This document shows positions 23,193-39,758 of a stretch of 64,000 bases of DNA, piece by piece (positions within the stretch are counted from its first letter, which is position 1; each line of letters begins with the position of its first letter). Origin of the DNA: Dehalococcoidia bacterium. GTDB lineage: Bacteria; Chloroflexota; Dehalococcoidia; Lucifugimonadales; Australimonadaceae. The stretch spans positions 1,094,153 to 1,158,152 of the forward strand of contig OY764542.1 in assembly GCA_963668465.1 (NCBI GenBank), given 5' to 3'. The position numbers were made by a program, and so were the translations under genes. The notes beneath the pieces are model-generated. The model had not been told where the DNA came from. It did no database searches and was given only the letters and a program-made list of their open reading frames with translations.

Positions 23193-26100
23193 ATGGCATC
23201 CGAGGGGAAGGTCGACTCCAGCAGACTCCCCAGCGAGTCCGTGGGCGGAGAGCCCATCGCGGTGGTAGGGATGGCGTGCCGGTTCCCCAGCGCCACGGGG
23301 CTTCCGGCGTTCTGGCGTCAGTTGGAGGCCGGTGAGAGCGCGGTCATCGAGGGCGTTCCAGGTTCCGGCGTCGGGCGCGTGGGCTACCTCTTCCCGGACG
23401 CAGCGGTACAAGCCGAGGCGTGCCGTTTCGGGGCGTACATCGACGAGATCGACCAGTTCGACGCGGGGTTCTTCCGCATCTCCCCGGTGGAGGCGCAACT
23501 GCTGGACCCGCAGCAGCGGCTGATGCTGGAGACGAGCTGGCGAGCGCTCGAAGACGCGGGGATCGACCCGGACACGCTGAAGGGCAGCCGCACCGGGGTC
23601 TACGCGGGCATCAGCAACAACGAGTACCGGGGGCTGATCCTTGGCGTCAGCGACACCGCCGACCCCGCCACGAGCCTCTACACGGTCACCGGCACGTCGT
23701 TCAACACGGCCATCGGGCGCGTGGCGTTCGCACTGGGGCTGCAAGGGCCGGCGATAGCGGTGGACACGGCGTGCTCGTCGTCGCTCGTGGCGGTGCACCA
23801 GGCAATCGTCGGTTTGCAGCGCGGCGAGGCCGACCTTGCGCTCGCGGGAGGCGTGCACGCGATCCTGTCGGGGCGGTTGCTCGAGCTGCGAGCGAACGCC
23901 GGGATGCTGGCGCCTGACGGCCAATGTAAGACGTTCGACGCCGCAGCGAACGGGTACGTGCGGGGCGAGGGCTGCGGCCTCCTCGTGCTGAAGCGGCTGA
24001 GCGAGGCGGAGGCGGACGGCGACCGGATCTGGGGCGTGATACGCGGCTCGGCGCTGAACCAGGACGGGGCGAGCCAGGGGCTGACGGTGCCGAGCGAGAG
24101 CGCCCAGGAGCAGGTGATCGAGGCGGCGTTGCTCCGGGCAGGGCTGGAGCCGTGGGAAGTGGACTACGTGGAGGCGCACGGGACGGGGACGCCGGTGGGC
24201 GACCCGATCGAGATGCAGGCCACGGGAACGGTGTACAGCAGGGGCCGCGAGGCAGACCGTCCGCTCCTCGTCGGGTCGGTGAAGACGAACATCGGCCACC
24301 TGGAGTCCGCGGCGGGCGCCGCCAGCCTCATCAAGGTGATGCTGGCGATGAAGCACCGGGTCATCCCGAAGCACCTGAACTTCCGCAACCCGAACCCGGA
24401 GATCGACTGGGAGCGGATGACGGTGCGGGTGGCGTCGGAGACGATGGAGTGGCCGGTCGTTCCCAACCGTCCACCCCGAGCAGGAGTGAGTGGATTCGGA
24501 TGGTCGGGCACGAACGCGCACGTCATCGTGGAGGGGTACGGGGAGCCTATAGCCGCTGACGCGGGGAACGGTCTGCCGGCGGGGCCTTCGGTGGCTATCG
24601 CGGTTGCGCAGGCGGAGGCTGGACACCCCCATCCTAGCCTTCCCCCATCGAGGGGGAAGGGACCGGAAGTCTCGACAGCGGAGGAATGGGAGTTGGCGGC
24701 GCGGGGGACGCGACTGCTGCCGCTGTCGGGGAAGTCGAGGCAGGCGCTCAGGGAGCAGGCGGAACGGTATATCGCGTGGCTCGACGAGCATCCCGAGCAG
24801 TTCCCACACGACGGCGCGGCCAGCGGCGAAGCGCTGTCAGACATGGCGTGGACAGCGAGCGTCGGGCGGAGTCACTTCCCGCACCGCTCGGGCGTTGTCT
24901 TTCGCAATGCGGCGTCGCTGCGCGAGCGGCTGCGGGAGGTCGTGGAGGGGGACGACACGCCCGACGGGCCAGAGCCGAAGCCTGCGTCCAAGGTGGCGTT
25001 CGTCTACACCGGCCAGGGCAGCCAGTGGGTGGGGATGGGAGAGGCGCTGTACGAGAGTGAGCCGGTGTTCCGCGCGGTGCTCGACCGGTGCGAGCGATGG
25101 GTGCAGGAGCACCGGGGAGCGTCGCTGCTGGACGTGCTGTTCGGACGGCCCGGCGCGACGGGCAGCCTCGACGACCCGATGTGGACGCAGCCCGCGACCT
25201 ACGCGCTCCAGTGCGGGCTGACTGCGCTCTGGTCGAGCCTGGGCGTGCATCCGGACGTCGTGATGGGCCATAGCCTCGGTGAGATTGCGGCTTCGCAGAC
25301 TGCAGGCGTGTTCAGCCTCGAGGACGGGCTACGGTTCGCGGCGACGCGCGGCGAGCTGATGGCGTCGCTGCCGGTGTCGGGCGCGATGGCGGCGGTGTTC
25401 GCGCCTGAGGCCCACGTGGGGGCTGCTCTAGAGGAGTGGAACGCTGCGACAGAGGGGCTGGGGTTGAGCGTCGCGGCAGACAACGGAGCGCACCAGGTGG
25501 TGAGCGGCGAGGCGGGGGAGGTAGAGCAGATCGTGCAGCGGTTCGAGGCAGAGGGGCTTCGCGTGAACCGGCTGCGGAGCAGCCCCGGCTACCACAGCGT
25601 GCTCGTGGAACCGGCGCTGGACGATCTGGCTGCTGTGGTTGGCGACCTTGCGGTCGCGCCGCCGTCCATCCCACTGGTGAGCAACGTGACTGGCCGGTTG
25701 ATCGCGCAGGGCGGCGTGCAGGACCCGGCGTACTGGCGGCGGCACGCGCGGCAGCCGGTGGCGTTCCGGGGGTGCGTCGAGACGCTGGCCGAGATGGGCG
25801 TCGACGCAGTCGTGGAACTGGGGCCGCACACGGTGCTGGGGCCGATGGCGAGCCTCGCGTGGCCGGAGACGAGCGCCGCCCCGGCGGTGCTATCGAGCCT
25901 GCACCGACCGCCGCGGGACCCGGCAGAGCCCATCGTGGACTCGACGGGTGGGTTCATCGAAGGAGTCGCCGCGGCGTACGAGGCGGACATCCCGTTCTCG
26001 TTCGCAGGGCTGTTCGCCGGGGAATCGCGGCGGCGGGTCGCGCTGCCGGGGTATCCATTCCAGCGGCAGTCGTACTGGGTCGACGAGGTGCGGCGGCGGC

Positions 26101-29100
26101 GCGCGGCCGCGGGGCATCCGTTGCTGGGGACCCGGCACGAGTCACCTCGCGGCGAGACGTCGTTCGAGTCGGAGCTATTCCCGGCGGACCCGGTCTGGCT
26201 AAACGATCACCGGGTGTTCGGGCGGGTAATCGCACCGGGCGCGCTGTACGGGGCGATGGCGGCGTCGGCGCTGGCGAACGCACAAGGGTCGGTGGCAGTG
26301 GAGGAGATGCAATTGCTCACCCCGCTGGTCCTGCCCGAACAGGACGGAGAGCAGGGTTCAAGGCAGGCGGGGCGGAGCGTGCAGATGGTGCTGGACGCTC
26401 CGGAAGGGACGTCGCCCCGGGGGTTCGAGATATTCAGCCGTGGCGATGGGGAAGAAGCGTGGACGCTGCACGCTCAGGGACGAGTGTCGTCGGCTGCGGA
26501 ACGGCAGGCACGCGAGCGGATCGACGTCGACCAACTCAAGGCCGGTCTGTCCGCAGTGGAACTGCCGGCGTTTTACCGGGCGCGCGCCGAAACGAACATC
26601 AACCTCGGTCCGTCGTTCCGAACGCTCCAGGGGCTCTGGCGCGGAGAGGGCAAGGCGATCGGCGAGATAGTGCTGCCCGAAGCGGTGGACGGCGCAGGGC
26701 TGCCCGTGCACCCGGTGCTGCTGGACGGCTGCTTCCAGGTGATGGCGGCGGCGCGCAACCGGGAGGGGAGCGAAGACGGAGCGACCTACCTGCCCTTCGG
26801 ATGGGAGCGGCTCTGGCTGGCGGAGCGATTGCCGGAACGGGTGGTCTGTCACGCCCGCATGCGGGAGAGCGTCCGCGAAGCGGGTAGCGATGGTGAAGCC
26901 GCCGAGCCGAGGGAGGTATTCGCTGGCGACCTGCGGTTCTACTCCGTGGACGGGGTCGAACTCGGCGGACTGAGCGGGTACACGGTGAAGCGGGCGACGC
27001 GAGCAGCCGTGCTGTCGGGGACCGAGGGAGTGAACGACCTTCTCTACGAGGTCATCTGGCGCGACAAGCCGCTTCCGCAAGGGATGCCATCCGCCGACTT
27101 CCTTCCGAGGCCGTCTGCCATCGCGGCGGGTTCCAATCCATTCTCAGGGTATCTGGTCGCGGAGGGTGTCGGAGCCGACGAACGAACAGCGCTGCTGACG
27201 GACCTCGAGCGGCTGTCGTGGCGGTACGCGCTCGCGGCGCTCGAACAGTTGGGCTGGAAGCGGCAGGCCGGAGAAGCGGTTGAGCCCGAACCCCTGCGGG
27301 AGCGGTTCGGGGTTTCGGCAGAGCACACACGACTGTTCCGTCGGCTGTTCGAACTGCAGGCGAGGGCCGGCGTCGTGGAGGCAGCAGGCGATGGCTTCGT
27401 CGTGCTGGCCGGGGGCGACGACCCACTCCCGGAAGCGGTGCCGAGCGATCCTGAGGCGTTCGCGGACGGGATGGCGTCGCGCTACGCGCATGGTTCGGTT
27501 GAAGTGGGACTGTTCCGGCGGTCCGCCGCAGCACTGGCGGAGGTGCTCGTCGGGAAGGCGGACCCGCTGACGCTGCTATTCAGCAGCGGGGAGCCGACCG
27601 CAGCCGACCTGTACATGCGGGCGCCGGTGGCGCGAGCGGCGAACCGGATGCTGGGCGACGCCGTCGCTGCGCTGCTGGAAGCGTTCCCGGATGGGCGTCG
27701 GTTGCGCGTGTTGGAGGTCGGCGCGGGCACGGGTTCGGCGACGGAACTGGTGTTGCCGGAGCTTCCAGCAGGCCGGTTCGACTACGTCTACACGGACATA
27801 TCGGCGGGCTTCTTCGCGGAGGCGGAGGGACGCTTCGGCGGGAGTGAAGCGTCGATCGAATACCGGGTGCTGGACGTCGAGAAGGACCCGGTGGCGCAGG
27901 GGTTCGACTCGCACGGGTACGACCTCGTCATCGCATCGAACGTGTTGCACGCGACACGCTACCTGGAGGAGACGCTCGCACACTGCCGTGACCTCCTCGC
28001 GCCGTCGGGGCAGTTGCTGGCGCTCGAGAACCTCCGCGGCCAAGGGTGGCTCGACCTCACATTCGGGCAGCTGGACGGCTGGTGGCGGTTCGCCGACTCC
28101 TACCGTCCGCATCATGCGCTGGCGAGCCCCGCGGTGTGGCGGCAGGCGCTCGGCGACGCGGGGTTCGTGGAGGCGGAGGTGCTGGGGGTGGAGGCGTCCG
28201 CATCGGCGGAGCCGGACAGGGGCGTCATCATGGCGCAGGGGCCGTCGGAAGTCATGGAACCGGCAGGCGTCTGGGTGCTCGCGGGCGACAAGGGCGGCGT
28301 GGGGGAGCAACTCGCGACGGAATTAGCGGGGCGCAACCAGACCGTGGTGCTGGCGGGCGCGGGGGTGGAAGGGGAGGACCGCGAGTCGTGGCGTTCGTTG
28401 CTGGAAGGGCTGCCTGTGGACCTGCCATTGAACGGCGTCGTCCATCTCATGGCGTTGGACGGGCATGGCCCGGATGCCACCACCGATGAGTTCGCACAAG
28501 ATGTAAGACATGCGGCGGCGAGCGCGCTTGCGCTCGTGCAGGGCATGACCGACGCCGACGTGACTCCCGTCAAGGGATTGTGGTTGGTCACGCGCGGCGG
28601 ACAGGTGCTGGAGAAGGAGCACGGCGGAGAGATCGCCGGCGCGACGCTGTGGGGGTTCGGGAAGGTGGTGGCGCGGGAGGCGGCGCACCTGCAACCGAGG
28701 ATGATCGACCTCGATCCGGGAGCGCCAGCGTCGATGTCGGATCTCGTCAACGAACTGCTGTACCCGGACTCGGAGACGCATATCGCCCATCGCCGGGGGT
28801 ACCGTCAGGTAGCAAGACTGGTTCGGGCCGGAAGCGCAACCGAGCGGTTGGCGCTGTCAGAAGACTCGGCCTGGCTGCTGGAGCCGGACGCAGGCGGTGC
28901 GCTCGAAGGGCTGCAGATAGGCCCCTTCCCTGCCCGTCCGCTGGAGCCGCGAGACGTCCGGATCGCGGTCGAGGCTGCGGGGCTCAACTTCTGGGACCTG
29001 TTCCGCGCGCTCGGCCTCATCGACGAAGGGTTGCTGGGCGGCGAGTTCTGTGGGCGGGTGCTCGGAGTGGGTAGCGATGTGACCAGCGTCTCGGTGGGAG

Positions 29101-32100
29101 AGCGGGTTGTTGGGCTGGCGTTCGGGACGTTCGGGTCCGAGGCCATCACGCGGGAGGAGATGGTTGCGCCTGCGCCGCCAGGGTTCCCGGTAGCGGACCT
29201 CGCCACGATCCCGACGGCGTTCGTGTCGGCGGCGCTCTCGTTCGACCTTTCGGGGCTGAACCCCGGCGACCGGGTGCTCATCCATTCCGGCGCGGGAGGC
29301 GTGGGGCTGGCCGCCATACAACTGGCGCAGGCGGCGGGGGCCGAGGTGTTCGCGACCGCGAGCGCGCCGAAGCAGGCGTATCTCCGCGAGTTGGGCGTAC
29401 AGCACGTATTCGACAGCCGCTCGACGAAGTTCGGGCAGGAGATACTCGACGCTACGGGCGGCGAGGGCGTTCACGTCGTGGTGAACAGCCTGACGGGAGA
29501 GGGCTTCATCGATGCGAGCTTGTCGTGTCTCGCGCAGGGCGGGCGGTTCATCGAACTGGCCCGGTTGGACATCCTGTCCGAGGAGGAGATGGCGGCGGTA
29601 CGGCCTGACGTCTCCTACTCGATCCTGATGCTGGACGTGCTGAAGGAGCATGACCCTGCGACGCCCGGGAACGCCCTGAGGCGCGTCATGCGGCAGCTGG
29701 CAGCGGGCGAGGTGACGCCGCTCGTCCATACCCGGTGGTCGATGACCGAAACCGGGCCTGCGATGAAGTTCATGCGGGCGGCACGGCACATCGGAAAGAT
29801 CGTCCTGGCGAACTCGCCCGTCGAGAGCGGGAGGCTGCGTGAGGACAGGACGTACCTCGTGACCGGCGGACTCGGTGGCATCGGGTGTGCGCTGGCGGAG
29901 TGGCTGGCAGAGCGGGGCGCAGGCGCTATCGTGCTGAATGGGCGTCGTCCTCCAGACCCCGAGGTGGCCGAGGCCATCGATGCCTTGCGCGAGCGCGGTG
30001 TGACCGTGCAGGTGGAGACCGCGGACGTGACGGACGCGGCGGCGGTCGACGGGATGCTGGAGCGCATCGATGCGACGCTGCCGCCGCTGGCGGGCGTCAT
30101 CCACAGCGTGGGTGTGCTGTCGGACGCGGCGCTGACGAACCAGAGCTGGGAGCGATTCGAGGACGTGCTTTGGCCAAAGGTGCTGGGGGCCTGGCACTTG
30201 CACCGCGCGACCATCGGACGCGACCTCGACATGTTCGTTCTGTTCTCGAGCGTGGCGGGGGTGCTGGGCAACCCGGGGCAGGCGAACCACGCCGCGGCCA
30301 ACGCATTCCTCGACCAGCTCGCCGGTCACCGGCGGGCGCTGGGGCTTCCCGGCCAGACCATCGCGTGGGGCGCGTGGTCGGGGCTGGGCGAGGCGGAGGA
30401 ACAGCGAGAGCGCATCGCGAGGCAGTTGGAGGCAGCGGGAACGGGCTGGATCACGCCGGAGCAGGGGCTCAAGGCGTTCGACGAGGTGCTGCGGCAGGAC
30501 ATGACCACCGGGATGGTGGCGTCGGTGGACTGGCAGGTCTTTTCGGAGGGGCACGAGCAACGTCCGCCATTGTTGAAGGAGCTGCTGGCCACGACCGAGG
30601 ACAGCGCCGCCGAGGCGGCTACGTCGCCGGGCGACATGCTGTCCGGCCTCTTGGACGCGTCGCTGGCGGAGCGTGAGCAGATGCTGGCATCGTTCCTGCA
30701 GCGGGAACTGCAGGCGGTGATGCGTCTGCCGACTCCTCCGGCCGCATCGGTGGAGTTCTCCGAGCTGGGGATGGACTCGCTGATGGCGGTGGAGTTACGC
30801 AACCGTGTGAACCGCGCATTCGCCGGAGAGTACGTGGCGCCGAACACTGTGGTGTTCGATTACCCGAGCGTCACGGCGCTCGCGCGTCACCTGGCCGGAG
30901 AGCTCGGTGAGCCTGCCGAAGCGGCGCTCCCGGAGCGGCGCGCGCCGGAAGTGCAAGTGCGGTCCGTCGTGGGAGACGGCATCGCCATCGTTGGGATGGC
31001 GTGCCGGTTCCCCGGCGCGGAGGACCTCTCGGCTTTCTGGCGCCAATTGGAAGCAGGCGAGAGCGCAATAGCAGACGGGCGCGAGGGGTCCGGCGACTGG
31101 AATGGCGCCGTAGGAGACCCTGCGGTGACAGACGCTTCCTACGTGCGGGGAGGGTTCGTCAAGGACATCGATCTGTTCGACTCCCGGTTCTTCCGTATCG
31201 CCCCGATCGAGGCCCGGATGATGGACCCGCAGCAGCGGATGATGCTGGAGACGAGCTGGCAGGCGCTGGAGGATGCGGGCATAGACCCTGACCGGTTGCG
31301 GGGCAGCCGCACGGGGGTCTACGCGGGCGTCGGGGGCAGCGAATACCGGGACCTCATCCAGACCAGCGGCAGGTTCAACAGCTACCTCGGCACCACAGGG
31401 AGCGTGACCGTTGGCCGCGTTGCGTTCGCGCTGGGCCTGGAGGGGCCCGCGATGCCGATGGACATGGCGTGCGCGTCGTCGCTGGCCGCCGTGCACCAGG
31501 CGGTTGCCGGCCTGCAGCGGGGCGAGGTGGACCTCGCGCTTGCGGGCGGCGTGAACGCTGTGCTGTCCGCGTCGGTCACGAGGTTCATGGCGGACCTCGG
31601 CATGTTGTCGGCCAACGGCGAGTGCAGGACGTTCGACGCAGCCGCGGATGGTTACGTGCGGGGCGAGGGCTGCGGTATCGTGGTGCTGAAGCGCCTTAGC
31701 GACGCGGAGGCAGACGGCGACCGGATATGGGGCGTCATCCGCGGCTCCGCGGTGAACCAGAACGGCGCGAGCATGGGGCTGACCGTCCCCAAGGGGCCGG
31801 CGCAGGAACGCGTTATCGAGGAAGCACTCGCACGGGCGGGCGTCGAACCCTCGGAAGTGGACTACCTGGAAGCGCACGGGGTCGGGTCGAACCTGGGCGA
31901 CCCCGTCGAGGTGCGCGCGGCGGCGGCGGTGTACGGCAGGGGGCGCGAAGCAGACCGCCCGCTCCTCGTGGGGTCCGTGAAGACGAACATCGGCCACCTG
32001 GAGTCCGCAGCGGGCATCGCCGCCTTCATCAAGGCTGTGCTCGCGATGGAGCACGGCGTAATCCCGAAGCACCTGCACCTCGACAACCCGAACCCCAACC

Positions 32101-33266
32101 TGGATTGGGAGCAACTCCCCGTACAGGTGACCACGGCCATGACCGACTGGCCGCCCGTCTCCGGCCGTCCGCCACGAGCAGGTGTGAGCGCGTTCGGACT
32201 CTCGGGCACCAACTCGCACGTCATAGTCGAGGGCTACGGAGAGCCGGACGCTGGCGGTGGGAACGGCTGGCCTGCGGGGCCTGCGGTACCGATCGCCGTT
32301 CCTGCGCCGGAGTCCGCAATCGATGGAACGCTCACGGTGCGAGGAACCCGGTTGCTGCCCCTCTCAGGGAAGACGGACCGCGCCCTGCGAGAGCTTGCCG
32401 GGCGCTATCTGTCGTGGCTGGACGAACATCCTGAGCTGTTCCCGCCCGGGTGTACCGGGAGCGATGAAGCGCTGTCTGACTTGACCTGGACGGCGAGCGT
32501 TGGACGCAGCCACTTCCCGTACCGCGCGGGCGTGGTGTTCCGGGATGTGGCATCGCTGCGCGCCCGGCTGCGGGCCGTGAGCGAAGAGGACGAGATGCCT
32601 GACGGGCAGGAGCCGCGAGTCGCGTCGAGGGTCGCTTTCGTCTACAACGGCGAAATTGGCCAGTGGGCAGAGGTGGGACAGGCGCTATACGAGAGCGAAC
32701 CGGTGTTCCGTGCGGTGCTGGACCGGTGCGATGCAGCGCTACGTGAGGTGCGCGGCGCTTCGCTGCTGGACGTGATGTTCGGTCGGTCTGGCGCTGCGGG
32801 TGGCCTCGACGATCCGGCATGGACGCAGCCTGCGATCTACGCCTTGGAATGCGCGCTGACGGCCCTCTGGTCAAGCGTGGGTGTGCGTCCGGACGTGGTT
32901 GTGGGCCACGACCGAGGCGAGACAGCAGCGTCGCAGGCGGCAGGCGTATTCAGCCTCGAGGATGGCCTGCGATTTGCAGCAACGCGCGGCGAGTTGATGG
33001 CATCAGGTGCGGAGACCAGCCTCGGAGCGGCCCTCGACGGAGTGGTTGTTGCTTCGCCGTCCATACCTCTGGTTCGTAGCCTCACGGAAGAGCCTGGGAT
33101 CGACTTCTCGGTCGAGTTGAACCCGAACGGCGGGTTCCTGGACGCGGTAGCCGAGGCATACGAGGCCGGCCTCCCGCTCTCGTTCCCGGGGCTGTTCGCT
33201 GGGGAGTCCAGGCGGCGTGTCTCACTACCGGGGTATCCGTTCCAGCGCAGACGTCACTGGGTCTAG
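23193..33266 (+). CDS. Type I polyketide synthase: KS-AT-DH-cMT-ER-KR-ACP-KS-AT(degenerate), with no terminal ACP or TE
   Basis: KS1 DTACSSS (about 23770) with EAHGTGT and KTNIGH. AT1 GHSLGE (25266-25283). DH HPLLG..P and LLDGCFQ. Methyltransferase LEVGAGTGS. MDR-type ER HSGAGGVGLAAIQ. KR TGGLGGIG. ACP GMDSL (Ser codon 30777-30779). KS2 DMACASS (Cys codon 31470-31472). AT2 GHDRGE (32904-32921) with large internal deletions. The ORF ends at YPFQRRRHWV. Confidence 0.9.
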   Translation: MASEGKVDSSRLPSESVGGEPIAVVGMACRFPSATGLPAFWRQLEAGESAVIEGVPGSGVGRVGYLFPDAAVQAEACRFGAYIDEIDQFDAGFFRISPVEAQLLDPQQRLMLETSWRALEDAGIDPDTLKGSRTGVYAGISNNEYRGLILGVSDTADPATSLYTVTGTSFNTAIGRVAFALGLQGPAIAVDTACSSSLVAVHQAIVGLQRGEADLALAGGVHAILSGRLLELRANAGMLAPDGQCKTFDAAANGYVRGEGCGLLVLKRLSEAEADGDRIWGVIRGSALNQDGASQGLTVPSESAQEQVIEAALLRAGLEPWEVDYVEAHGTGTPVGDPIEMQATGTVYSRGREADRPLLVGSVKTNIGHLESAAGAASLIKVMLAMKHRVIPKHLNFRNPNPEIDWERMTVRVASETMEWPVVPNRPPRAGVSGFGWSGTNAHVIVEGYGEPIAADAGNGLPAGPSVAIAVAQAEAGHPHPSLPPSRGKGPEVSTAEEWELAARGTRLLPLSGKSRQALREQAERYIAWLDEHPEQFPHDGAASGEALSDMAWTASVGRSHFPHRSGVVFRNAASLRERLREVVEGDDTPDGPEPKPASKVAFVYTGQGSQWVGMGEALYESEPVFRAVLDRCERWVQEHRGASLLDVLFGRPGATGSLDDPMWTQPATYALQCGLTALWSSLGVHPDVVMGHSLGEIAASQTAGVFSLEDGLRFAATRGELMASLPVSGAMAAVFAPEAHVGAALEEWNAATEGLGLSVAADNGAHQVVSGEAGEVEQIVQRFEAEGLRVNRLRSSPGYHSVLVEPALDDLAAVVGDLAVAPPSIPLVSNVTGRLIAQGGVQDPAYWRRHARQPVAFRGCVETLAEMGVDAVVELGPHTVLGPMASLAWPETSAAPAVLSSLHRPPRDPAEPIVDSTGGFIEGVAAAYEADIPFSFAGLFAGESRRRVALPGYPFQRQSYWVDEVRRRRAAAGHPLLGTRHESPRGETSFESELFPADPVWLNDHRVFGRVIAPGALYGAMAASALANAQGSVAVEEMQLLTPLVLPEQDGEQGSRQAGRSVQMVLDAPEGTSPRGFEIFSRGDGEEAWTLHAQGRVSSAAERQARERIDVDQLKAGLSAVELPAFYRARAETNINLGPSFRTLQGLWRGEGKAIGEIVLPEAVDGAGLPVHPVLLDGCFQVMAAARNREGSEDGATYLPFGWERLWLAERLPERVVCHARMRESVREAGSDGEAAEPREVFAGDLRFYSVDGVELGGLSGYTVKRATRAAVLSGTEGVNDLLYEVIWRDKPLPQGMPSADFLPRPSAIAAGSNPFSGYLVAEGVGADERTALLTDLERLSWRYALAALEQLGWKRQAGEAVEPEPLRERFGVSAEHTRLFRRLFELQARAGVVEAAGDGFVVLAGGDDPLPEAVPSDPEAFADGMASRYAHGSVEVGLFRRSAAALAEVLVGKADPLTLLFSSGEPTAADLYMRAPVARAANRMLGDAVAALLEAFPDGRRLRVLEVGAGTGSATELVLPELPAGRFDYVYTDISAGFFAEAEGRFGGSEASIEYRVLDVEKDPVAQGFDSHGYDLVIASNVLHATRYLEETLAHCRDLLAPSGQLLALENLRGQGWLDLTFGQLDGWWRFADSYRPHHALASPAVWRQALGDAGFVEAEVLGVEASASAEPDRGVIMAQGPSEVMEPAGVWVLAGDKGGVGEQLATELAGRNQTVVLAGAGVEGEDRESWRSLLEGLPVDLPLNGVVHLMALDGHGPDATTDEFAQDVRHAAASALALVQGMTDADVTPVKGLWLVTRGGQVLEKEHGGEIAGATLWGFGKVVAREAAHLQPRMIDLDPGAPASMSDLVNELLYPDSETHIAHRRGYRQVARLVRAGSATERLALSEDSAWLLEPDAGGALEGLQIGPFPARPLEPRDVRIAVEAAGLNFWDLFRALGLIDEGLLGGEFCGRVLGVGSDVTSVSVGERVVGLAFGTFGSEAITREEMVAPAPPGFPVADLATIPTAFVSAALSFDLSGLNPGDRVLIHSGAGGVGLAAIQLAQAAGAEVFATASAPKQAYLRELGVQHVFDSRSTKFGQEILDATGGEGVHVVVNSLTGEGFIDASLSCLAQGGRFIELARLDILSEEEMAAVRPDVSYSILMLDVLKEHDPATPGNALRRVMRQLAAGEVTPLVHTRWSMTETGPAMKFMRAARHIGKIVLANSPVESGRLREDRTYLVTGGLGGIGCALAEWLAERGAGAIVLNGRRPPDPEVAEAIDALRERGVTVQVETADVTDAAAVDGMLERIDATLPPLAGVIHSVGVLSDAALTNQSWERFEDVLWPKVLGAWHLHRATIGRDLDMFVLFSSVAGVLGNPGQANHAAANAFLDQLAGHRRALGLPGQTIAWGAWSGLGEAEEQRERIARQLEAAGTGWITPEQGLKAFDEVLRQDMTTGMVASVDWQVFSEGHEQRPPLLKELLATTEDSAAEAATSPGDMLSGLLDASLAEREQMLASFLQRELQAVMRLPTPPAASVEFSELGMDSLMAVELRNRVNRAFAGEYVAPNTVVFDYPSVTALARHLAGELGEPAEAALPERRAPEVQVRSVVGDGIAIVGMACRFPGAEDLSAFWRQLEAGESAIADGREGSGDWNGAVGDPAVTDASYVRGGFVKDIDLFDSRFFRIAPIEARMMDPQQRMMLETSWQALEDAGIDPDRLRGSRTGVYAGVGGSEYRDLIQTSGRFNSYLGTTGSVTVGRVAFALGLEGPAMPMDMACASSLAAVHQAVAGLQRGEVDLALAGGVNAVLSASVTRFMADLGMLSANGECRTFDAAADGYVRGEGCGIVVLKRLSDAEADGDRIWGVIRGSAVNQNGASMGLTVPKGPAQERVIEEALARAGVEPSEVDYLEAHGVGSNLGDPVEVRAAAAVYGRGREADRPLLVGSVKTNIGHLESAAGIAAFIKAVLAMEHGVIPKHLHLDNPNPNLDWEQLPVQVTTAMTDWPPVSGRPPRAGVSAFGLSGTNSHVIVEGYGEPDAGGGNGWPAGPAVPIAVPAPESAIDGTLTVRGTRLLPLSGKTDRALRELAGRYLSWLDEHPELFPPGCTGSDEALSDLTWTASVGRSHFPYRAGVVFRDVASLRARLRAVSEEDEMPDGQEPRVASRVAFVYNGEIGQWAEVGQALYESEPVFRAVLDRCDAALREVRGASLLDVMFGRSGAAGGLDDPAWTQPAIYALECALTALWSSVGVRPDVVVGHDRGETAASQAAGVFSLEDGLRFAATRGELMASGAETSLGAALDGVVVASPSIPLVRSLTEEPGIDFSVELNPNGGFLDAVAEAYEAGLPLSFPGLFAGESRRRVSLPGYPFQRRRHWV
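24624..24666 (+). repeat. REP-like 43-nt palindromic element, copy b, inside the PKS coding sequence (KS1-AT1 linker)
   Basis: cacccccatcctagccttcccccatcgagggggaagggaccgg; translated in-frame as HPHPSLPPSRGKGP. The paralogous KS2-AT2 linker lacks this stretch. Confidence 0.8.
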
Positions 33267-33294
33267 GGCGCCACACGAACGTTTAGCTCTGAAG

Positions 33295-34203
33295 TCAGAT
33301 AGCCCTGACCTCATCCAGGAATGCAAGCATCGTTTCAACGCATTCGCGAGGCTCTTCCAGTTGCAGGAAATGTGTCGTATCCGGCAAAAAGTCGTAGCCG
33401 ACGCTTTCGATGTCGCTGAGATCAAGAGTAGGGAGATAAGAGTATGGAAGGGTAGGATCGGCTCCGATGACCTTCACGGGGCAAAGGAAGGAATCGAAGT
33501 CGACTCCCATGGCGTAGACGCCGGCATACTCGATCATCCGGGCTTCGTATTCACGAGGGCATCGCAGCTGATAACCATCCCCGTCGTCGCTCCTGCGCAG
33601 TGTCGTCCGAGCAACCAAGTCGTGGACTCCCGGAACGACCTTTCTGTACAGGGGCGCCAGAGGAAGAACCTCCATGAGCTGCTCCAGCGAATGGAATCGC
33701 TCAGTACGGTGGCGGGCTATGTATGCGGTGCGGATCGCCACGGCATCGAATTCTTCGTAGCTTCGACCAGGCTTGCATAGAGGCGGGTCGAACAGGACAA
33801 GCGCCGAGTAGTCCTTTCCCCTGGCCTGGGACAGGAGCGATACCAGCGCTGAAACGGAGTGGAAGACCCCAATCGTGGGTTTGGCTCCGAAGTGCAGGTT
33901 GACGGCTTCGAGGATGCGGTCATGGTCGGCGACGTGAGTTGGGATGTGGTGCTTCTCGATCGGGCTGAGGCGATTCCAGCCGTGGTTACGCAAGTCATAC
34001 ACGATGACGTCGAAGTCGTTGGTGAGGAGAGACCAGAACGGATAGTAGAGGTCGATGGCGAGACCGTTGCCGTGACTCAGGAGAAGCCGGGGTCCATCCG
34101 GATTGCCGTGACGCCGCAGCGTAATGACCGTGTCGGCATCCACTCGCACGTCGAGTGTGGAGAGAGGTTCTGGCACCTGCCAGACCGCTTCCGCAGGTGG
34201 CAT
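33295..34203 (-). CDS. Alpha/beta-hydrolase fold protein; candidate chain-releasing or editing hydrolase
   Basis: About 302 aa. HGNG oxyanion-like motif, nucleophile-elbow-like GVFHSVSA, and a C-terminal ..DTTHF.. His. The ATG overlaps the PPTase stop (TGATG). Confidence 0.65.
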   Translation of the reverse strand: MPPAEAVWQVPEPLSTLDVRVDADTVITLRRHGNPDGPRLLLSHGNGLAIDLYYPFWSLLTNDFDVIVYDLRNHGWNRLSPIEKHHIPTHVADHDRILEAVNLHFGAKPTIGVFHSVSALVSLLSQARGKDYSALVLFDPPLCKPGRSYEEFDAVAIRTAYIARHRTERFHSLEQLMEVLPLAPLYRKVVPGVHDLVARTTLRRSDDGDGYQLRCPREYEARMIEYAGVYAMGVDFDSFLCPVKVIGADPTLPYSYLPTLDLSDIESVGYDFLPDTTHFLQLEEPRECVETMLAFLDEVRAI

Positions 34204-34970
34204 CAACGTGCAAGGCCTGTAAGGGGATGGGCGTTCAGATCGGATCCGGCCAGGGAGGTGGCTGGGCTTAGTTCGTGGGCGATGGCCGCAACGAAGTCCT
34301 TGTTCTCGAAACCATGCACAAACCAGCGGTCCGACGGCGCCTGGGGAAACGTGAAGATAGCGGAGTTGGCGCCACGGCGCATCGCCGGCGGGACTTCGAA
34401 TGAGGATGCGTCCAGGGACAGACCCGTTCCCAGGGCTTTGACGAGGGCTTCCTTGACCGTCCAGAGCTTGAAGAAAGCACGATGTCTGTCACTGCCTGTG
34501 GTTGAAGCGAGATCCGCTTGCTCAGCAGGCGTGAATACGGCATCGATGAGAATGTCCACATTGCGGTGGGGAGTGCACTCCTCCACGTCGACGCCCAACC
34601 GACCCTCAGGGGCAAGCGCAACGAGTCCGTGTTCCCCGCTGTGGCTGACGTTGAAGCTGATGCAAGCGGGAAGCCCCTGCACGATGGCGAATGGCTTCTC
34701 GTGCTCTGAGGCCCCGAAAGCAAGTTGCTCGTTGCAGCAGCCGAGGTCGTGACTCAGCAGCGCACGGAGAGCAGCGCGGCAGAGTGTGAAACGGCGTCGC
34801 GGCCCAGGGTTGGTGAATCTGGAGGCACGCGCCCGCTCTTGCTCATCCAGCCAGGAGAACGCTTCGGCTTCTCTGGCTGGATGAGGGCTCAGATCGACAT
34901 GCGAGACGACAGCGCTTCCGACCTGTCCGATAGAACTCCACCAGTGTCCGGTGACGGAAGAGGTCGCCAT
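34203..34970 (-). CDS. Sfp-type 4'-phosphopantetheinyl transferase
   Basis: FNVSHSG, LGVDVE and FKLWTVKEALVKALG motifs. Confidence 0.85.
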   Translation of the reverse strand: MATSSVTGHWWSSIGQVGSAVVSHVDLSPHPAREAEAFSWLDEQERARASRFTNPGPRRRFTLCRAALRALLSHDLGCCNEQLAFGASEHEKPFAIVQGLPACISFNVSHSGEHGLVALAPEGRLGVDVEECTPHRNVDILIDAVFTPAEQADLASTTGSDRHRAFFKLWTVKEALVKALGTGLSLDASSFEVPPAMRRGANSAIFTFPQAPSDRWFVHGFENKDFVAAIAHELSPATSLAGSDLNAHPLTGLAR

Positions 34971-34991
34971 TGCACGTCTGTCTAAACCGGA

Positions 34992-35237
34992 CTAGGCGGA
35001 TTTGCTGTCGAGGAAGGCAACAACCTTCGGGAGGTCCGTCAGGGCAGCGCAGTCGTCAGGAGTGAAGGTGACGTTGAAGTCCTGGGCTATCAGCTTCGCC
35101 AGTGCAACGATGTCTGTGGAAGACACTCCGGCGTCCACCAGGCTGAGGTTCAAGTCCTCCGGGACGTCCAAGGCCTTGCCATCCACTTCGATGTTCTCAC
35201 TGACCAGCTGCCTGATCCGTTCCGCGCTTGAGGCCAT
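34992..35237 (-). CDS. Discrete acyl/peptidyl carrier protein
   Basis: 81 aa; LVDAGVSSTDIVALAKLI resembles the carrier-protein Ser-attachment helix. AAGGAG lies upstream of ATG 35237. The track ORF extends further upstream. Confidence 0.65.
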   Translation of the reverse strand: MASSAERIRQLVSENIEVDGKALDVPEDLNLSLVDAGVSSTDIVALAKLIAQDFNVTFTPDDCAALTDLPKVVAFLDSKSA

Positions 35238-35412
35238 CAGGGTAACTCCTTTCGGGGGTCCGCATGGGTGCGGGAGGCGTTGGCACGAGGATAGCGACAC
35301 ACTCCCGACGGGGTCAAGTTCGAGTGCCGAAACTCCGGCCTCGTGACGCCGTCAGGCGAGGACTACCGCGGGGCTAAGAGTAGCCAGGTTTTGAGCCTCC
35401 AGGACACCGTGT

Positions 35413-35569
35413 GACATCTGCCCTTTTCGCGGTTGGGCATGCAATTCCTAACCTCTTCCGCACACCCGTGGCAGTCAACACGGGCACCAGGAGAGGTGAC
35501 AGGAATGCTGACCAAAGTGAATACGTGTGCGCTTACCGGACACGACGGGCAGATCATCGAGGTGGAAGT
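35413..35569 (+). pseudogene. Truncated duplicate of the comM/yifB 5' end plus its upstream leader (left direct repeat)
   Basis: About 93% identical by eye (10 substitutions and 1 indel) to 38145-38302. It includes ATG 35505 and about 21 conserved codons (MLTKVNTCALTG.DGQIIEVEV), after which similarity stops. Confidence 0.8.
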
Positions 35570-35754
35570 AGTGCATCGTGTCCTCCTTACGGTCTGCACG
35601 GGCCAGCCCCGGCCGTTCGCGGTTGCTCTGGTCAACGTTCCAAGGCCCACTTCGACGCCTGCCTGGTTCGCTGAGGGCATGCCGGTTGAGGGAGATCAGG
35701 AACCGTATGTCCCATCGCGAAGGGGCACAGGCGTCAGGCCGTGCAAGCGTGTCG

Positions 35755-36420
35755 CTAGTCCTCCTTAGCCAAGGCATCTACCAGGCCGTTCTGCACGGCC
35801 CAGAGCACCAACTGCTGCATCGACCCGATCCCGAGTTTGTGCTGGATGCCGTAGACGGCATTGCGAACGGTCACCGGCTGGACACCCCTCGCCTCCGCTA
35901 TCCGGGCGTAGGACATGCCGGTCGCGAAGGAGGTGAGTATCTCGCGCTCCCTTGGGGTGAGCCCGTCGATGTCCCTCGCCCTCGCACTGTAGCGTCTCCT
36001 TATGAACACTTTCCGTACAACCTCAGCCGGCAGGCGGAGTTCCCCCATGATTACGTCCCGCACGGCTGCGAGCAGTCGTTCCCGGCCCACTTCTTTCGGT
36101 ACGTACCCCGACGCGCCTGCAGCCACGGCTTCCACCACAGCGTCCTCGTCCGGCGAGGCCGTCAGCATGACCACGAGGGTCTCAGGGGCGGATTCCATGA
36201 TCTCCCTGCAGGCCTCAACCCCATCCTTCTCCGGCATCATCACATCCATCATGATCAGGTCCGGCGACACGTCGGCGGCCATCCTGACCGCCTCGACGCC
36301 ATCCACGGCCTGTCCCACCACCTCGTACTCGCCGGTCTGCTCCAGGAGCTGACTGAGGCCAAACCTCACGACCTCATGGTCGTCGACGATCATCACCCTC
36401 GTGCGCTTGCCTGGTGCCAT
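35755..36420 (-). CDS. NarL/FixJ-family response regulator (REC plus LuxR-type HTH)
   Basis: VMIVDDHEVVR..DLIMMDVMMPEKDG receiver motifs; C-terminal LTPREREILTSFATGMSYARIAEARGVQPVTVRN. Confidence 0.9.
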   Translation of the reverse strand: MAPGKRTRVMIVDDHEVVRFGLSQLLEQTGEYEVVGQAVDGVEAVRMAADVSPDLIMMDVMMPEKDGVEACREIMESAPETLVVMLTASPDEDAVVEAVAAGASGYVPKEVGRERLLAAVRDVIMGELRLPAEVVRKVFIRRRYSARARDIDGLTPREREILTSFATGMSYARIAEARGVQPVTVRNAVYGIQHKLGIGSMQQLVLWAVQNGLVDALAKED

Positions 36421-36432
36421 AGCAGTCTCCCT

Positions 36433-37680
36433 TCAGCCGATATCCAACGGCATAACGCAGGTTACGGTCGCCCCGCCCATGGCCCCTCTCTCCTCCACGA
36501 CGAGACGCCCGCCCAGGCGCTCGGCGTCCCTGCTCATGTTCGTGAAACCATGGCCGCGTTCCGCGTAGTCATGGGGGAGCCCGGCGCCGTCGTCCGACAC
36601 TGACAGCCGGAGGCTCCCCTCACCGAAGTTCAGCTCGACGGACACCCTGCTGGCCTCTGCATGGCGATAGGCGTTGGTGAGCGCGTTGTGCGCTATCGAG
36701 AACAGGAGGCCCCTGGTCTCTATCGAGAGCGGCGGCTCGACCCCCGTCTGGACGAGTTCTGCAGGCACGGAGGTGATGTTGGTGAAGCTGCTCGCGTGGG
36801 ATCTGAGCGCCCGGTTCAACTCCCTGCCCTCGTAGATGCCACCCATGTTGATGGGATGCCTCAACTCCCATATGGCAGAGCGGGAGAACCGGGACATCTC
36901 ATCGAGCATGGCGGTCAGCTCCGGGTTCGCGTTTCCGGCGAGCGACCTGGCCGTGTCGATACCCAACCCGATCATGTATGCGGACTGGGCTGCAGTGTCG
37001 TGGATGGTCTGCGACAGCTCGATGCGCTCACGTTCGAGCGCGCGCTCGCGCTCCACCGCCTGGCCGAACCTCATCCGCTCGAACCTGGAGGCCGCGTTGA
37101 CCACTCCGACGACCGCGTACATCATCGCTACCCTGGCCAGCAGCGCTTTCTCGTCCCGTGCCTCGTAGTCCAGGCCATCCCCCACGGTCAGGCTTATCGT
37201 GACATAGACGAGGGACACCGCCGTCACCCAGGCGAGATTGAGCCTGAGCGAGGTGAACACCACCGCGAACCCGGCCAGGGCCGGGTAGTAGAACAGGTGC
37301 ATGAAATAGTGACTGAAACCGGCGCCCAGAGTGATGGCGATGGAGAGGGCCACGGCATCCATCACATAGAGGGCCAGGAGCGAGGTCCCGGTTATGCTCC
37401 CCTTCGTGCGGATGCGGTAGTGGAGGTACCCGTTGTATCCGGCCAACAGCAGCGGGAACAGGAGGTAAACGGCGACCCTGAGCATCCCGTAGTACGGGCG
37501 ATAGACGACCTCGAAGAGAACCAGGGCGAGTATCACCCAGTGCCCCCAGACGGTGAGGGTCCCAACGTATCGCAGCCCGACAGCGTCGATCTGGTTGAGC
37601 GTCCAATCGCTCAGCCCGAGAAGCCTGGCGATCTTCGCGGCAGGCCGGAGACTCTGGTCGTACTGGGGCGCGTGAGACAT
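36433..37680 (-). CDS. Membrane sensor histidine kinase, HisKA_3/NarX-type
   Basis: Multiple N-terminal TM helices, H-box LSQTIHDTAAQSAY, N-box HNALTNAYRHA, G-box DDGAGL. Start taken at ATG 37680; the track ORF extends to TTG 37761 through a G12 tract. Confidence 0.85.
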   Translation of the reverse strand: MSHAPQYDQSLRPAAKIARLLGLSDWTLNQIDAVGLRYVGTLTVWGHWVILALVLFEVVYRPYYGMLRVAVYLLFPLLLAGYNGYLHYRIRTKGSITGTSLLALYVMDAVALSIAITLGAGFSHYFMHLFYYPALAGFAVVFTSLRLNLAWVTAVSLVYVTISLTVGDGLDYEARDEKALLARVAMMYAVVGVVNAASRFERMRFGQAVERERALERERIELSQTIHDTAAQSAYMIGLGIDTARSLAGNANPELTAMLDEMSRFSRSAIWELRHPINMGGIYEGRELNRALRSHASSFTNITSVPAELVQTGVEPPLSIETRGLLFSIAHNALTNAYRHAEASRVSVELNFGEGSLRLSVSDDGAGLPHDYAERGHGFTNMSRDAERLGGRLVVEERGAMGGATVTCVMPLDIG

Positions 37681-37744
37681 CTCTTTTCCCGGCGGTCGTT
37701 GGTTCTGAGGGGCGCCCCAGGTCATGCAGGGAGTCTCAAGGCGT

Positions 37745-37756
37745 CCCCCCCCCCCC
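37745..37756 (-). repeat. Homopolymeric G12 tract (C12 on the + strand) at the 5' end of the histidine-kinase ORF
   Basis: Counted directly. On the minus strand: TTG-GC-G12-ACG. Confidence 0.95.
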
Positions 37757-38144
37757 GCCAATCTAGTCAGCCTGGCCTATGCCCGCAAGAAGCAGATGCC
37801 CCTGACGACGTAGCAATAGTACCTATGGCGCATCGTTACATCGCACGCCCGCGCTGAAGGACGCGCCTGTAAGGGCGCCTGTTCCGGGTATGGCCTGAGG
37901 CTGGTGCCAGGGATGTGAGGCGCATCTGGTACCAGCGAATGTGACGTCTTCGAGTGGTCTCATGGGAGCAGATGCCCGTTCCAAGGCAGGCGCTCCCGCT
38001 GTGGGTGTGGATATTACCCTTCGTTGTGCTCGCACTGATCGGTGGCAGCATCGCGTACGCGCGCAGTCGGTCCTAGGTACAGATTCCCAACTAACCGGAC
38101 GCGTGGGCTAGCCGTGCTGCCGCGAGGGCCTCGTACGACAATGC

Positions 38145-38302
38145 GACATCTGCCCCTTTCGCGGTTGGGCATGCAGTTCCTAACCTCTTCCGACACACCC
38201 GTGGCAGTCAACACGGGCACCAGAAGAGGTGACAGGAATGCTGACCAAAGTGAACACGTGCGCACTGACCGGACTCGACGGGCAGATTATCGAGGTGGAG
38301 GT
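38145..38302 (+). repeat. Right direct repeat: leader and first about 24 codons of the intact comM/yifB
   Basis: See 35413-35569. Confidence 0.8.
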
Positions 38303-39758
38303 GGATGTCGCGCCCGGCCTGCCACACTTCGTCGTGGTGGGGTTGCCTGACGCGGCGGTGCAGGAGTCTCGTGAACGGGTGCGCTCGGCGATACGCAACT
38401 CGGGGTTCGAGTTCCCGATGCGGCGCATCACGGTGAGCCTCGCCCCCGCTGACATCCGCAAGGAAGGCCCGTCCTACGATCTGCCCATCGCAGTCGGCAT
38501 CCTCGCCAGTAGCGGGCAGATCGACATCATGCTCGGCGAGACAGTGCTCATCGGCGAGCTGTCGCTGGAGGGCAACCTTCGGCACACCGACGGCATCCTC
38601 CCAATGGTGGGTGTCGCGCGAGACCGGGGGATGCGGACCGCGGTCGTGCCGCAGGCGAATGCCGACGAGGCCGCACTGGTTGAGGGAGTGGACGTGCTCG
38701 GCGCGCGCACGCTTCGCGAACTGGTGGAGCACATCAGGGGCGATGCGCCCATCCTCACGCACACGCCCACCGTGGAACTTTCACGCATCGCACCTGAGGA
38801 CTACGCCATCGACATGGCCGACATCAGGGGGCAGGACCAGGCGAAGCGCGCGATCGAGATAGCTGCTGCGGGCGGGCACAATCTGCTGATGACCGGCCCA
38901 CCCGGCAGTGGGAAGACGCTCCTCGCCCGTGCGATGGCCTCCATCCTGCCGCCGCTCACCCCAACCGAGGCGCTCGAGACGACGAAGGTCTACAGCATCG
39001 CCGGGATGCTGCGCGACGACACCCCACTAGTCTCGACGCGTCCCTTTCGCTCACCGCACCACACCATCTCACACGCAGGGCTCGTCGGCGGCGGAAGGAT
39101 CCCCAAGCCGGGAGAGGTGTCGCTCAGCCACCGGGGCGTGCTCTTCCTCGACGAACTACCCGAGTTCGGGCACAGCGTCCTGGAAGTGCTGCGACAGCCG
39201 ATAGAGGACAAGGTCGTCACGATAAGCCGGGCGAACGGCACCGTCACCTACCCGGCAAGCTTCATGCTGGTCGGCGCCATGAACCCGTGCTTCTGCGGCA
39301 ACTACGGCGACCCGAGAAAGGCATGCACCTGCTCGTCGCAACTCCTCAGCCGCTACCAGAAGCGCATATCCGGCCCGTTGCTGGACAGGATGGACATCTT
39401 CATCGATGTACCGAGAGTGGAGTACGAGAAGCTCACGGGCGACGTGACAGGCGAGCCCTCAGCGCGCATAAGGGAACGCGTCTGCCACGCGCGGCAGGTG
39501 CAGCAGGCGCGGTTCCGCGAGTCGTGCGGACAGTGCAACGCGGACATGGGACCGTCGGACGTGTGGAAGTTCTGCCGTATGGACGACGAGGCCGAAGGGC
39601 TGGCGCGAGCCGTGATGGAGCGCATGCACTTCTCCGCACGGGCGTTCCATCGCACGCTCAAACTCGCGCGCACCATCGCGGACCTAAGCGGCGAGGACAT
39701 CATCGGCATGCCGCACCTCGCGGAAGCGGTGCAGTACCGACAGCGTGGGGCCGAGTAG
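38229..39758 (+). CDS. comM: YifB/ComM-family Mg-chelatase-like AAA+ ATPase
   Basis: 509 aa. N-terminal Lon-protease-like ChlI domain (ITVSLAPADIRKEGPSYDLPIAVGILAS). Walker A GPPGSGKT, GVLFLDELPEF, and a C-terminal Mg_chelatase_C-like region. Confidence 0.9.
   Translation: MTGMLTKVNTCALTGLDGQIIEVEVDVAPGLPHFVVVGLPDAAVQESRERVRSAIRNSGFEFPMRRITVSLAPADIRKEGPSYDLPIAVGILASSGQIDIMLGETVLIGELSLEGNLRHTDGILPMVGVARDRGMRTAVVPQANADEAALVEGVDVLGARTLRELVEHIRGDAPILTHTPTVELSRIAPEDYAIDMADIRGQDQAKRAIEIAAAGGHNLLMTGPPGSGKTLLARAMASILPPLTPTEALETTKVYSIAGMLRDDTPLVSTRPFRSPHHTISHAGLVGGGRIPKPGEVSLSHRGVLFLDELPEFGHSVLEVLRQPIEDKVVTISRANGTVTYPASFMLVGAMNPCFCGNYGDPRKACTCSSQLLSRYQKRISGPLLDRMDIFIDVPRVEYEKLTGDVTGEPSARIRERVCHARQVQQARFRESCGQCNADMGPSDVWKFCRMDDEAEGLARAVMERMHFSARAFHRTLKLARTIADLSGEDIIGMPHLAEAVQYRQRGAE

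Follow-up and report, generated by a model that had tools for sequence, protein, structure and literature searches.

Among predicted site-specific large serine recombinases, 12.4% target Mg-chelatase/ComM homologues (PMC10083194), and phage WO sr1WO integrates into the Mg chelatase gene of Wolbachia (PMC9203015). Here we describe the comM (yifB) locus of an uncultured Dehalococcoidia bacterium (assembly GCA_963668465.1), analysed within a stretch of 64,000 nucleotides (contig OY764542.1, positions 1,094,153 to 1,158,152; hereafter the window), where a small cassette encoding a two-component system lies upstream of comM and is bracketed by two copies of the comM promoter and first codons. The target gene is shared with the large-serine-recombinase elements in comM/yifB. 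Those elements, however, split comM, duplicate nothing and carry their own recombinase, whereas the comM of the window is whole, a 160-bp segment has been duplicated and the insert lacks a recombinase. comM also serves as an insertion site for cargo in the AbaR/Tn6022-type islands of Acinetobacter baumannii, Tn7-like elements that transpose by means of tns genes, produce a 5-bp target duplication and interrupt comM; neither tns genes, nor the 5-bp duplication, nor an interrupted comM is found at the locus described here.

Phage 21 and e14 carry into the icd gene of Escherichia coli a slightly diverged duplicate of approximately 160 bp of the target end, which restores the gene and leaves a displaced stump. 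There the duplicate represents the 3' end, is foreign and element-borne, and the element contains a tyrosine integrase, whereas the duplicate in the window represents the 5' end with its promoter, is of same-species origin and comes without an integrase. Campbell-type insertion-duplication and homology-facilitated illegitimate recombination, both known mainly from laboratory constructs and transformation experiments, predict no preferred junction within a gene. Their end product has the architecture of the window, i.e. homologous segment, insert and homologous segment, with the gene left intact if the segment holds promoter and start.

The ssrA islands of Dehalococcoides resemble the locus in that they occur in the same class, use a single-copy housekeeping target and leave a displaced direct repeat of the target end at the far boundary (PMC3146451). 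They form tandem arrays, and only 16 described islands carry an integration module (PMC3146451). Their repeat, however, is 20 bp long and derives from the 3' end of an RNA gene, whereas in the window a protein-coding gene has 160 bp of its 5' end duplicated, together with its promoter, and the repeat brackets 2.6 kb of cargo (PMC3146451). The use of comM as a target and its link to recombinases are already known. From ssrA in Dehalococcoides, duplications that restore the target and tandem arrays with islands that lack an integrase are known as well. In the literature we found no description of a promoter and 5'-codon duplication that preserves comM around small integrase-less cassettes and recurs across a class.

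A duplicated comM 5' segment around a two-component cassette

The direct repeat measures 160 nt in its left and 161 nt in its right copy (coordinates of all features are given in Table 1), with approximately 93% identity and one 1-nt indel. Each copy comprises 96 nt of comM promoter/leader followed by comM codons 1–22. Length and identity of the repeat rule out a chance origin, and its copy number in the 3.24-Mb single-contig genome is two. Past codon 22 the left copy departs from the comM frame, reaching a stop at 35768; the right copy continues into an intact ComM of 506 aa, as expected from a preliminary description of this DNA that had seen in the duplication a restoration of comM. That description, made from the letters alone, had put the repeat at about 157 bp, 93% identity and 21 codons. 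Repeat and identity are borne out, but its size needed revision, as the repeat extends 3 bases further to the left and holds 22 codons.

The insert (35570–38141; 2.57 kb) carries on the opposite strand a regulator with Receiver and GerE domains and a kinase with HisKA_3 and HATPase_c domains, which sit in one operon. Both genes had been recognised before, but they are not the only content, since the 3' stump of a surface-protein gene (37993–38076) precedes the right copy. It is 76% identical in nucleotides and 81% in amino acids to the C-terminus of L118:1327-2136 (genome G021; relatives are cited by our genome and locus numbers) and also similar to L119:2092-2883 (G012). The 5' part of this gene must have been deleted, because a full-length gene ending there would overlap the kinase. 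The stump thus documents the decay that the preliminary description had suspected, and its statement that the insert lacks an integrase also held, with zero recombinase domains found. A 34-codon frame (37972–38076) considered as a small membrane-protein gene was discarded, being the C-terminal stump of the protein of approximately 265 aa. No terminal inverted repeats were detected at the insert. The closest DNA relative of the cassette (G010; 81% nucleotide identity) is homologous over 35750–37827 only, and the 185 bp at the left edge have no homologue in relatives or in the genome itself, except for one 20-mer. The insert is therefore a trimmed patchwork of ordinary chromosomal DNA and not a streamlined element.

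Comparison with relatives shows that the cassette was gained in one lineage. Three sister species (G015, G013 and G019) are colinear with positions 25389–35569 of the window, and their alignment resumes at 38135, so that megasynthase, hydrolase, phosphopantetheinyl transferase (PPTase), acyl carrier protein (ACP), leader and comM are contiguous. Independent metagenome contigs of a sister species (NCBI, JGI, ENA, Logan) likewise read polyketide synthase (PKS)-ACP-PPTase-hydrolase-comM-electron transfer flavoprotein (ETF)-DUF3179. The cassette is found at comM in none of the 21 sister species of the genus. Given empty sites with matching flanks and this absence of occupied sites, insertion at the comM 5' end is specific to the lineage and occurred after the split from all sampled sister species. 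The contrary pattern named in the preliminary description, relatives with the same arrangement and no empty sites, is not what the comparison of empty and occupied loci returned. Exact-protein look-ups of ComM, regulator and kinase for contigs of the same species were all empty, and the listed members of the ComM cluster are at most 98.4% identical.

To polarise the 13 differences between the two copies, both were aligned with 21 orthologous leaders. Where leaders differ from species to species, the two copies agree, so that they are each other's nearest relatives. By this alignment the duplicated DNA is evidently of same-species origin. Approximately 7–8 of the 13 differences are derived in the left copy (six of seven substitutions are GC-to-AT, and there are in addition a Leu13His exchange and a 1-nt deletion), as against approximately 3 in the right copy (two synonymous in codons, one in the leader). 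The left copy is accordingly a displaced stump in neutral decay, and the right copy provides the working promoter and start. The preliminary description had taken the 7% divergence as the mark of a foreign incoming copy and proposed to compare the ancestry of the copies; foreign descent of either copy is contradicted by the lineage-specific leader present in both, and the changes represent decay in place on the displaced copy. As the change on the left branch (~5%) compares with a comM dS of 0.45–0.51 to the nearest species, the duplication is about one fifth as old as the species split.

The leader contains two conserved motifs, TGTGACATCTGCCCCTTTCGCG at 38142–38163 and TTCCTAACCTC at 38177–38187, which are present in 20 of 21 species of the genus and are separated by a variable spacer; the motif region is also found in the left copy (35410–35455). 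They probably constitute a promoter and an operator for some regulator. Downstream of the motifs, the 5' untranslated region contains a hairpin (GCCCG...CGGGC) able to pair with the ribosome-binding site (RBS); the leader folds no better than shuffled sequence, and an Rfam search of 35200–38500 returned zero family matches. Homology with relatives starts at the left edge of the right copy (38142), regardless of the upstream content.

Recurrent junctions at comM codons 19–40 in the Dehalococcoidia

The first 100 residues of ComM served as query against genomes of the order (401) and of the class (401), followed by inspection of the loci; comM 5' fragments of less than about 19 codons lie below the detection limit of this search. 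Truncated 5' ends of comM were found to end at codons 19/20 (G259), 22 (window), 29 (G025), 30 (G359), 34 (G716), 35 (G591), 37 (G467) and 39 (G417), each in a different family, eight in all. Five other 5' fragments end at codons 62, 119, 228, 345 and 363. Eight of 13 ends thus fall within codons 19–40, where by our estimate approximately 0.6 would be expected if ends were uniform over codons 20–506. Reciprocal 3' copies of comM start at codon 22 (G122) and at about codon 34 (G282), and in G068 contigs break at codons 30–32. We conclude that comM codons ~19–40 are a recombination hotspot, which has been struck by independent events in no fewer than eight Dehalococcoidia families.

Several of these loci reproduce the comM-preserving architecture. 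In G025, which belongs to another family, repeats of approximately 155 nt (L066, G025:C5, 10327–10480 and 11882–12036; 97% identity, one 1-nt indel) consist of a 72-nt leader and 29 comM codons and bracket a single gene on the opposite strand (272 aa, SCO4226-like plus adenylate/guanylate cyclase), without integrase. G025 is without a sequenced relative in its family. G417 contains an array of three leader/5' copies (L131, G417:C244, 864–978, 4151–4328 and 8201–8378) and two cassettes with intact comM downstream, the cargo including a peptidase M28 gene and genes without assigned function; this array is comparable to the tandem arrays of ssrA islands (PMC3146451). Larger segments are duplicated in G317 (leader plus aa 1–345, 94% identity, around 8.7 kb of MoxR/DUF58/Ig-like genes) and G617 (aa 1–119).

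Recombinase genes lie at the junction itself in two other genomes, and the earlier proposal of comM as an integration hotspot, drawn from other bacteria, holds in this class. In G359 a 668-aa open reading frame (ORF) for a large serine recombinase, with Resolvase, Recombinase and Zn_ribbon_recom domains, converges into and overlaps a comM' truncated at codon 30. In G467 the stump breaks off at codon 37, and 44 nt separate it from the end of a recombinase-like gene. A second cluster of junctions lies at aa 329–363 (G024, G028, G032, G122, G282, G317, G073 and G021). There, a 561-aa large serine recombinase adjoins comM aa 354 in G122 and G282 (L101, G122:C13, 1327–3012; L109, G282:C8, 135–1820). 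In all four of these genomes the recombinase gene is convergent with, and adjoins, the 5' part of a broken comM, a geometry like that of the ssrA islands, where the gene of the serine recombinase DsiB overlaps attL (PMC3146451). Relatives of the G359-type recombinase are rare; two were found, neither beside comM.

Some loci show further rearrangements. comM is split near aa 350 over 36–680 kb in G024, G028 and G032. In G122 a 7-kb insert (L101, G122:C13, 4007–10984) separates comM aa 1–228 from aa 22–354 and consists of two inverted Terminase_2 (small terminase) genes around genes for a short-chain dehydrogenase/reductase (SDR), a GMC-oxidoreductase and a metallo-beta-lactamase, an odd, composite-like architecture. 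In G210 and G226, which belong to f51, also the family of the G359 recombinase insertion, comM is frameshifted or scrambled at codons 26–32 (L106, G210:C73, ~2460–2480; L107, G226:C79, ~3425–3435), which might reflect either a past excision or an error in sequencing.

Origin of the duplication

We consider it somewhat probable (about 55%) that the locus arose by insertion-duplication at a recombinase-targeted comM hotspot and persists today as a non-autonomous relic that has become fixed. At codon 22, the junction would go back to a former attachment event of a serine recombinase. A circular DNA or fragment bearing that junction, the adjoining cargo and a comM promoter/5' segment from the same species would have recombined in a Campbell-type event with the intact chromosomal comM, and the recombinase and most of the original element would have been deleted later or would never have been on the fragment. 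The end product, a homologous segment, an insert and a homologous segment with intact gene, matches the outcome of a Campbell-type insertion by a circle with the promoter-proximal end of the gene. The repeats are same-species DNA and the insert contains no recombination machinery, as RecA-dependent insertion-duplication of a circle would have it. The junction of the window (codon 22) falls into the same 60-nt hotspot as the recombinase-adjacent ones (codon 30 in G359, codon 37 in G467) but at a different base, and the recombinases concerned differ.

Several points weigh against this reading. Serine recombinases normally create no duplication; since 160 bp are duplicated here, an extra step beyond the recombinase is needed, and that step is unobserved. 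The junctions are scattered over approximately 60 nt and do not mark one fixed crossover. Neither a recombinase domain nor a relic of one was found in or beside the insert by domain search, which included frames on the opposite strand, and no motif is common to the insert-side junctions of the window, G025, G359, G122 and G282. Elsewhere in the genome, six serine-recombinase-like ORFs are only 21–26% identical to the comM-associated ones and unlinked, and the only two tyrosine recombinases lie far from comM and are unrelated to those associated with it. The search for integrases and attachment (att) sites matching the repeat, as the preliminary description had advised, accordingly yielded no attP-like sequence and no related integrase in this genome. 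A donor was also missing, as no locus of a two-component homologue (30 named genomes and one metagenome contig) lies beside a comM leader or fragment.

Candidate traces of an element were examined and rejected. A similarity that goes on for 25–45 nt beyond the repeat ends, considered as an att half-site, was too weak to be retained; the non-coding insert edges of the window and G025 share nothing that would indicate conserved element ends; and minus-strand frames across the left junction were not supported on search as recombinase relics. Relocation within the genome was likewise rejected. The cassette locus of G010 is syntenic with 1172.7–1182.8 kb of the genome under study, approximately 42 kb from comM, and this region is cassette-free, bears no scar and has no similarity to the insert edges.

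Host recombination alone is possible but clearly less probable than a recombinase-targeted origin. In one form, RecA would integrate a circle from the same species across the 160 bp of homology; in the other, linear DNA gained by transformation would be anchored in comM and joined at codon 22 by homology-facilitated illegitimate recombination. The left limit of the repeat would be set at the point where donor and recipient contexts turn homologous. The same-species origin of both copies agrees with this, as does the synteny of the genus: every break lies at the leader's left edge, with variable neighbours upstream (Rieske oxygenase, Amdase, aldolase, DtxR, GlmS). Host recombination also accounts neatly for the start of the repeat, which in four independent cases lies 62–96 nt before the ATG and immediately beyond the promoter, where synteny within the genus breaks. 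Moreover, the surface-protein stump and the 65 bp before the right copy resemble a foreign upstream context, the PKS-comM interval is already mosaic (PKS nearest to G011/G003, the adjoining hydrolase-PPTase-ACP trio nearest to G012 and the G015 group), and most cassettes beside comM' stumps lack an integrase. However, host recombination leaves unexplained why junctions cluster at codons 19–40 in eight families (~0.6 of 13 expected) and why recombinase genes lie exactly at the junction in G359 and G467, and in no relative is the two-component system or the surface-protein gene found upstream of comM.

We regard as speculative, and on balance unlikely, an extension of insertion-duplication in which the 5' end of comM acts as a gene-capture platform. 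Integrase-less cassettes, each made of cargo, a portable comM promoter and the first 20–40 codons, would circularise via their repeats and re-insert by insertion-duplication in cells of the same species. The recombinase would act in trans, or the host RecA/ComM transformation machinery would take its place, and serial insertions would generate arrays like that of G417 without ever inactivating comM.

It is improbable that the left copy has been retained for a function, either as a second comM-type promoter for antisense RNA over the regulator-kinase operon or as the source of a small protein. A -10-like TAACCT and the greater part of the conserved motif upstream are preserved in the copy, the stretch from there to the 3' end of the regulator contains nothing like a terminator, and G025 has the same geometry, its cargo likewise being encoded on the opposite strand. 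Transcription probably still starts at the left promoter and runs antisense into the operon; we treat this as a by-product. Against a function, the left copy changes at approximately 2.5 times the rate of the right. The spectrum of its changes is neutral (GC-to-AT), and one of its codons has changed non-synonymously and one nucleotide has been lost. Cargo orientation also differs among the other genomes. Its reading frame is conserved nowhere: the read-through frame (35505–35768; within a listed open frame of 35433–35768) has no Pfam match, and no homologue of its non-ComM part turned up in the loci retrieved for comparison or elsewhere in the genome, so that it is probably not a gene.

That the arrangement is ancestral and was lost by the relatives is very improbable. 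Although 160-bp direct repeats would readily permit deletion to the single-copy state seen in relatives, each of the 21 sister species and several metagenome populations would have had to lose the cassette; moreover, the copies differ by only ~7–8%, as against ~50% neutral divergence between species, and both have the lineage-specific leader. An assembly artefact, the merging of strains with different comM upstream regions in what is a single-contig metagenome-assembled genome, is hardly credible even though contigs of other assemblies break here (G068, G733), because a chimeric join in a shared segment yields no second, diverged copy with its own decay pattern, and the same architecture occurs independently in G025, G417 and G317.

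Feature coordinates, flanking genes and implications

Table 1. Coordinates of the repeat copies, the insert and comM (positions in the window).
Feature	Position	Strand	Remarks
Left repeat copy	35410..35569	+	Displaced comM promoter/leader (35410-35504) and codons 1-22 (35505-35570; ATG at 35505); decaying stump
Read-through frame of the left stump	35505..35768	+	22 ComM codons and 65 unrelated codons; antisense overlap with the 3' end of the regulator; probably not a gene
Left insert edge	35570..35754		185 bp between the codon-22 junction and the regulator stop codon
NarL/LuxR-family response regulator	35755..36420	-	221 aa; Response_reg 5.9e-29, GerE 7.5e-10
Membrane sensor histidine kinase	36433..37680	-	415 aa from ATG 37680; HisKA_3 and HATPase_c
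Kinase upstream region	37681..37827	-	Homologous to the G010 cassette; contains C12 run 37745-37756
3' stump of surface-protein gene	37993..38076	+	Last ~27 codons and stop; parent ~265 aa, PT-rich, C-terminal membrane anchor
Right repeat copy	38142..38302	+	Working comM promoter/leader and codons 1-22; RBS 38223-38229; ATG 38238
comM/yifB	38238..39758	+	506 aa, intact; TIGR00368, 614.5 bits (cut-off 362.4)

The encoded ComM contains the ChlI N-domain, the Mg_chelatase AAA+ domain and the C-terminal domain. It is 94–98% identical in amino acids to that of most sister species and 82–89% in four. Relative to the seven nearest species, dN is 0.008–0.016 and dS 0.45–0.54 (dN/dS ~0.02–0.03), and comM is thus under strong purifying selection.

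All NCBIfam matches of the two-component system lie under the equivalog cut-offs, including the top match of the regulator, NarL. The system is one member of a very large family of paralogues in these genomes, with >3400 relatives at E≤1e-50. The open frame of the kinase runs on past the ATG to a TTG at 37761. Among the 5.8 billion proteins of one database the kinase is unique, with the next best match 73% identical; its best identity among any relatives is 73–76%. In G015 a paralogous cassette (74% nucleotide identity; L067, G015:C17, 4850–7520, compared with C1:3222982-3223048 of the genome under study, G000) makes up an indel of 2.67 kb; the genes on either side are conserved, and no repeats flank it. 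Members of this two-component family have often been gained and lost. The homopolymer at 37745–37756 (G12 on the kinase strand), approximately 65 nt upstream of the kinase ATG, may be prone to slippage.

Genes for Cadherin-domain proteins followed by one for a PT-rich protein of approximately 265 aa occur in G021 (L118, G021:C7, 47–2136) and G012 (L119, G012:C70, 2092–3830). The PT-rich proteins share a C-terminal anchor, LPLWLWVLPFVVLAL..GSIAYARS, which may be an unrecognised sorting signal in sponge symbionts. The 20-nt match of the left insert edge to an insertion sequence was judged to be chance. That insertion sequence occurs in the genome in seven near-identical copies (window 11339–12382 and six others, e.g. 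C1:1085258 and 2283927).

To the left, the locus is flanked by genes for a 3358-aa megasynthase (PKS), an alpha/beta hydrolase, a PPTase and an ACP, and to the right comM is followed by genes for a fused ETF, a DUF3179 protein and an SDR. The hydrolase-PPTase-ACP trio (33295–35300) is inverted relative to G011, G003, G020, G014 and G005, to which it is 65–70% identical, and is 78–84% identical to G012 and to G015/G013/G019; the PKS beside it is closest to G011/G003 (87–91%). This suggests, from sequence similarity, that the PKS-comM interval combines two old haplotypes with a recombinant join next to comM.

comM has been known as the favourite target of large serine recombinases, and as one that they break. 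The locus described here represents a second outcome, in which comM stays intact and cargo is placed upstream, and in which uncultured, sponge-associated Dehalococcoidia carry small cargo (signalling genes, hydrolases) bracketed by a duplicated promoter/5' segment. This comM-preserving outcome arose repeatedly and independently, usually without an integrase and once as an array. The locus also cautions against reading divergence between repeat copies as foreign origin. If the cassettes are immobile, it is a clean, datable case of a recombinase-made scar that was repaired and then left to decay; if they still move, they would constitute an integrase-poor route of gene gain in unculturable bacteria, which bears on why competence genes attract mobile DNA.

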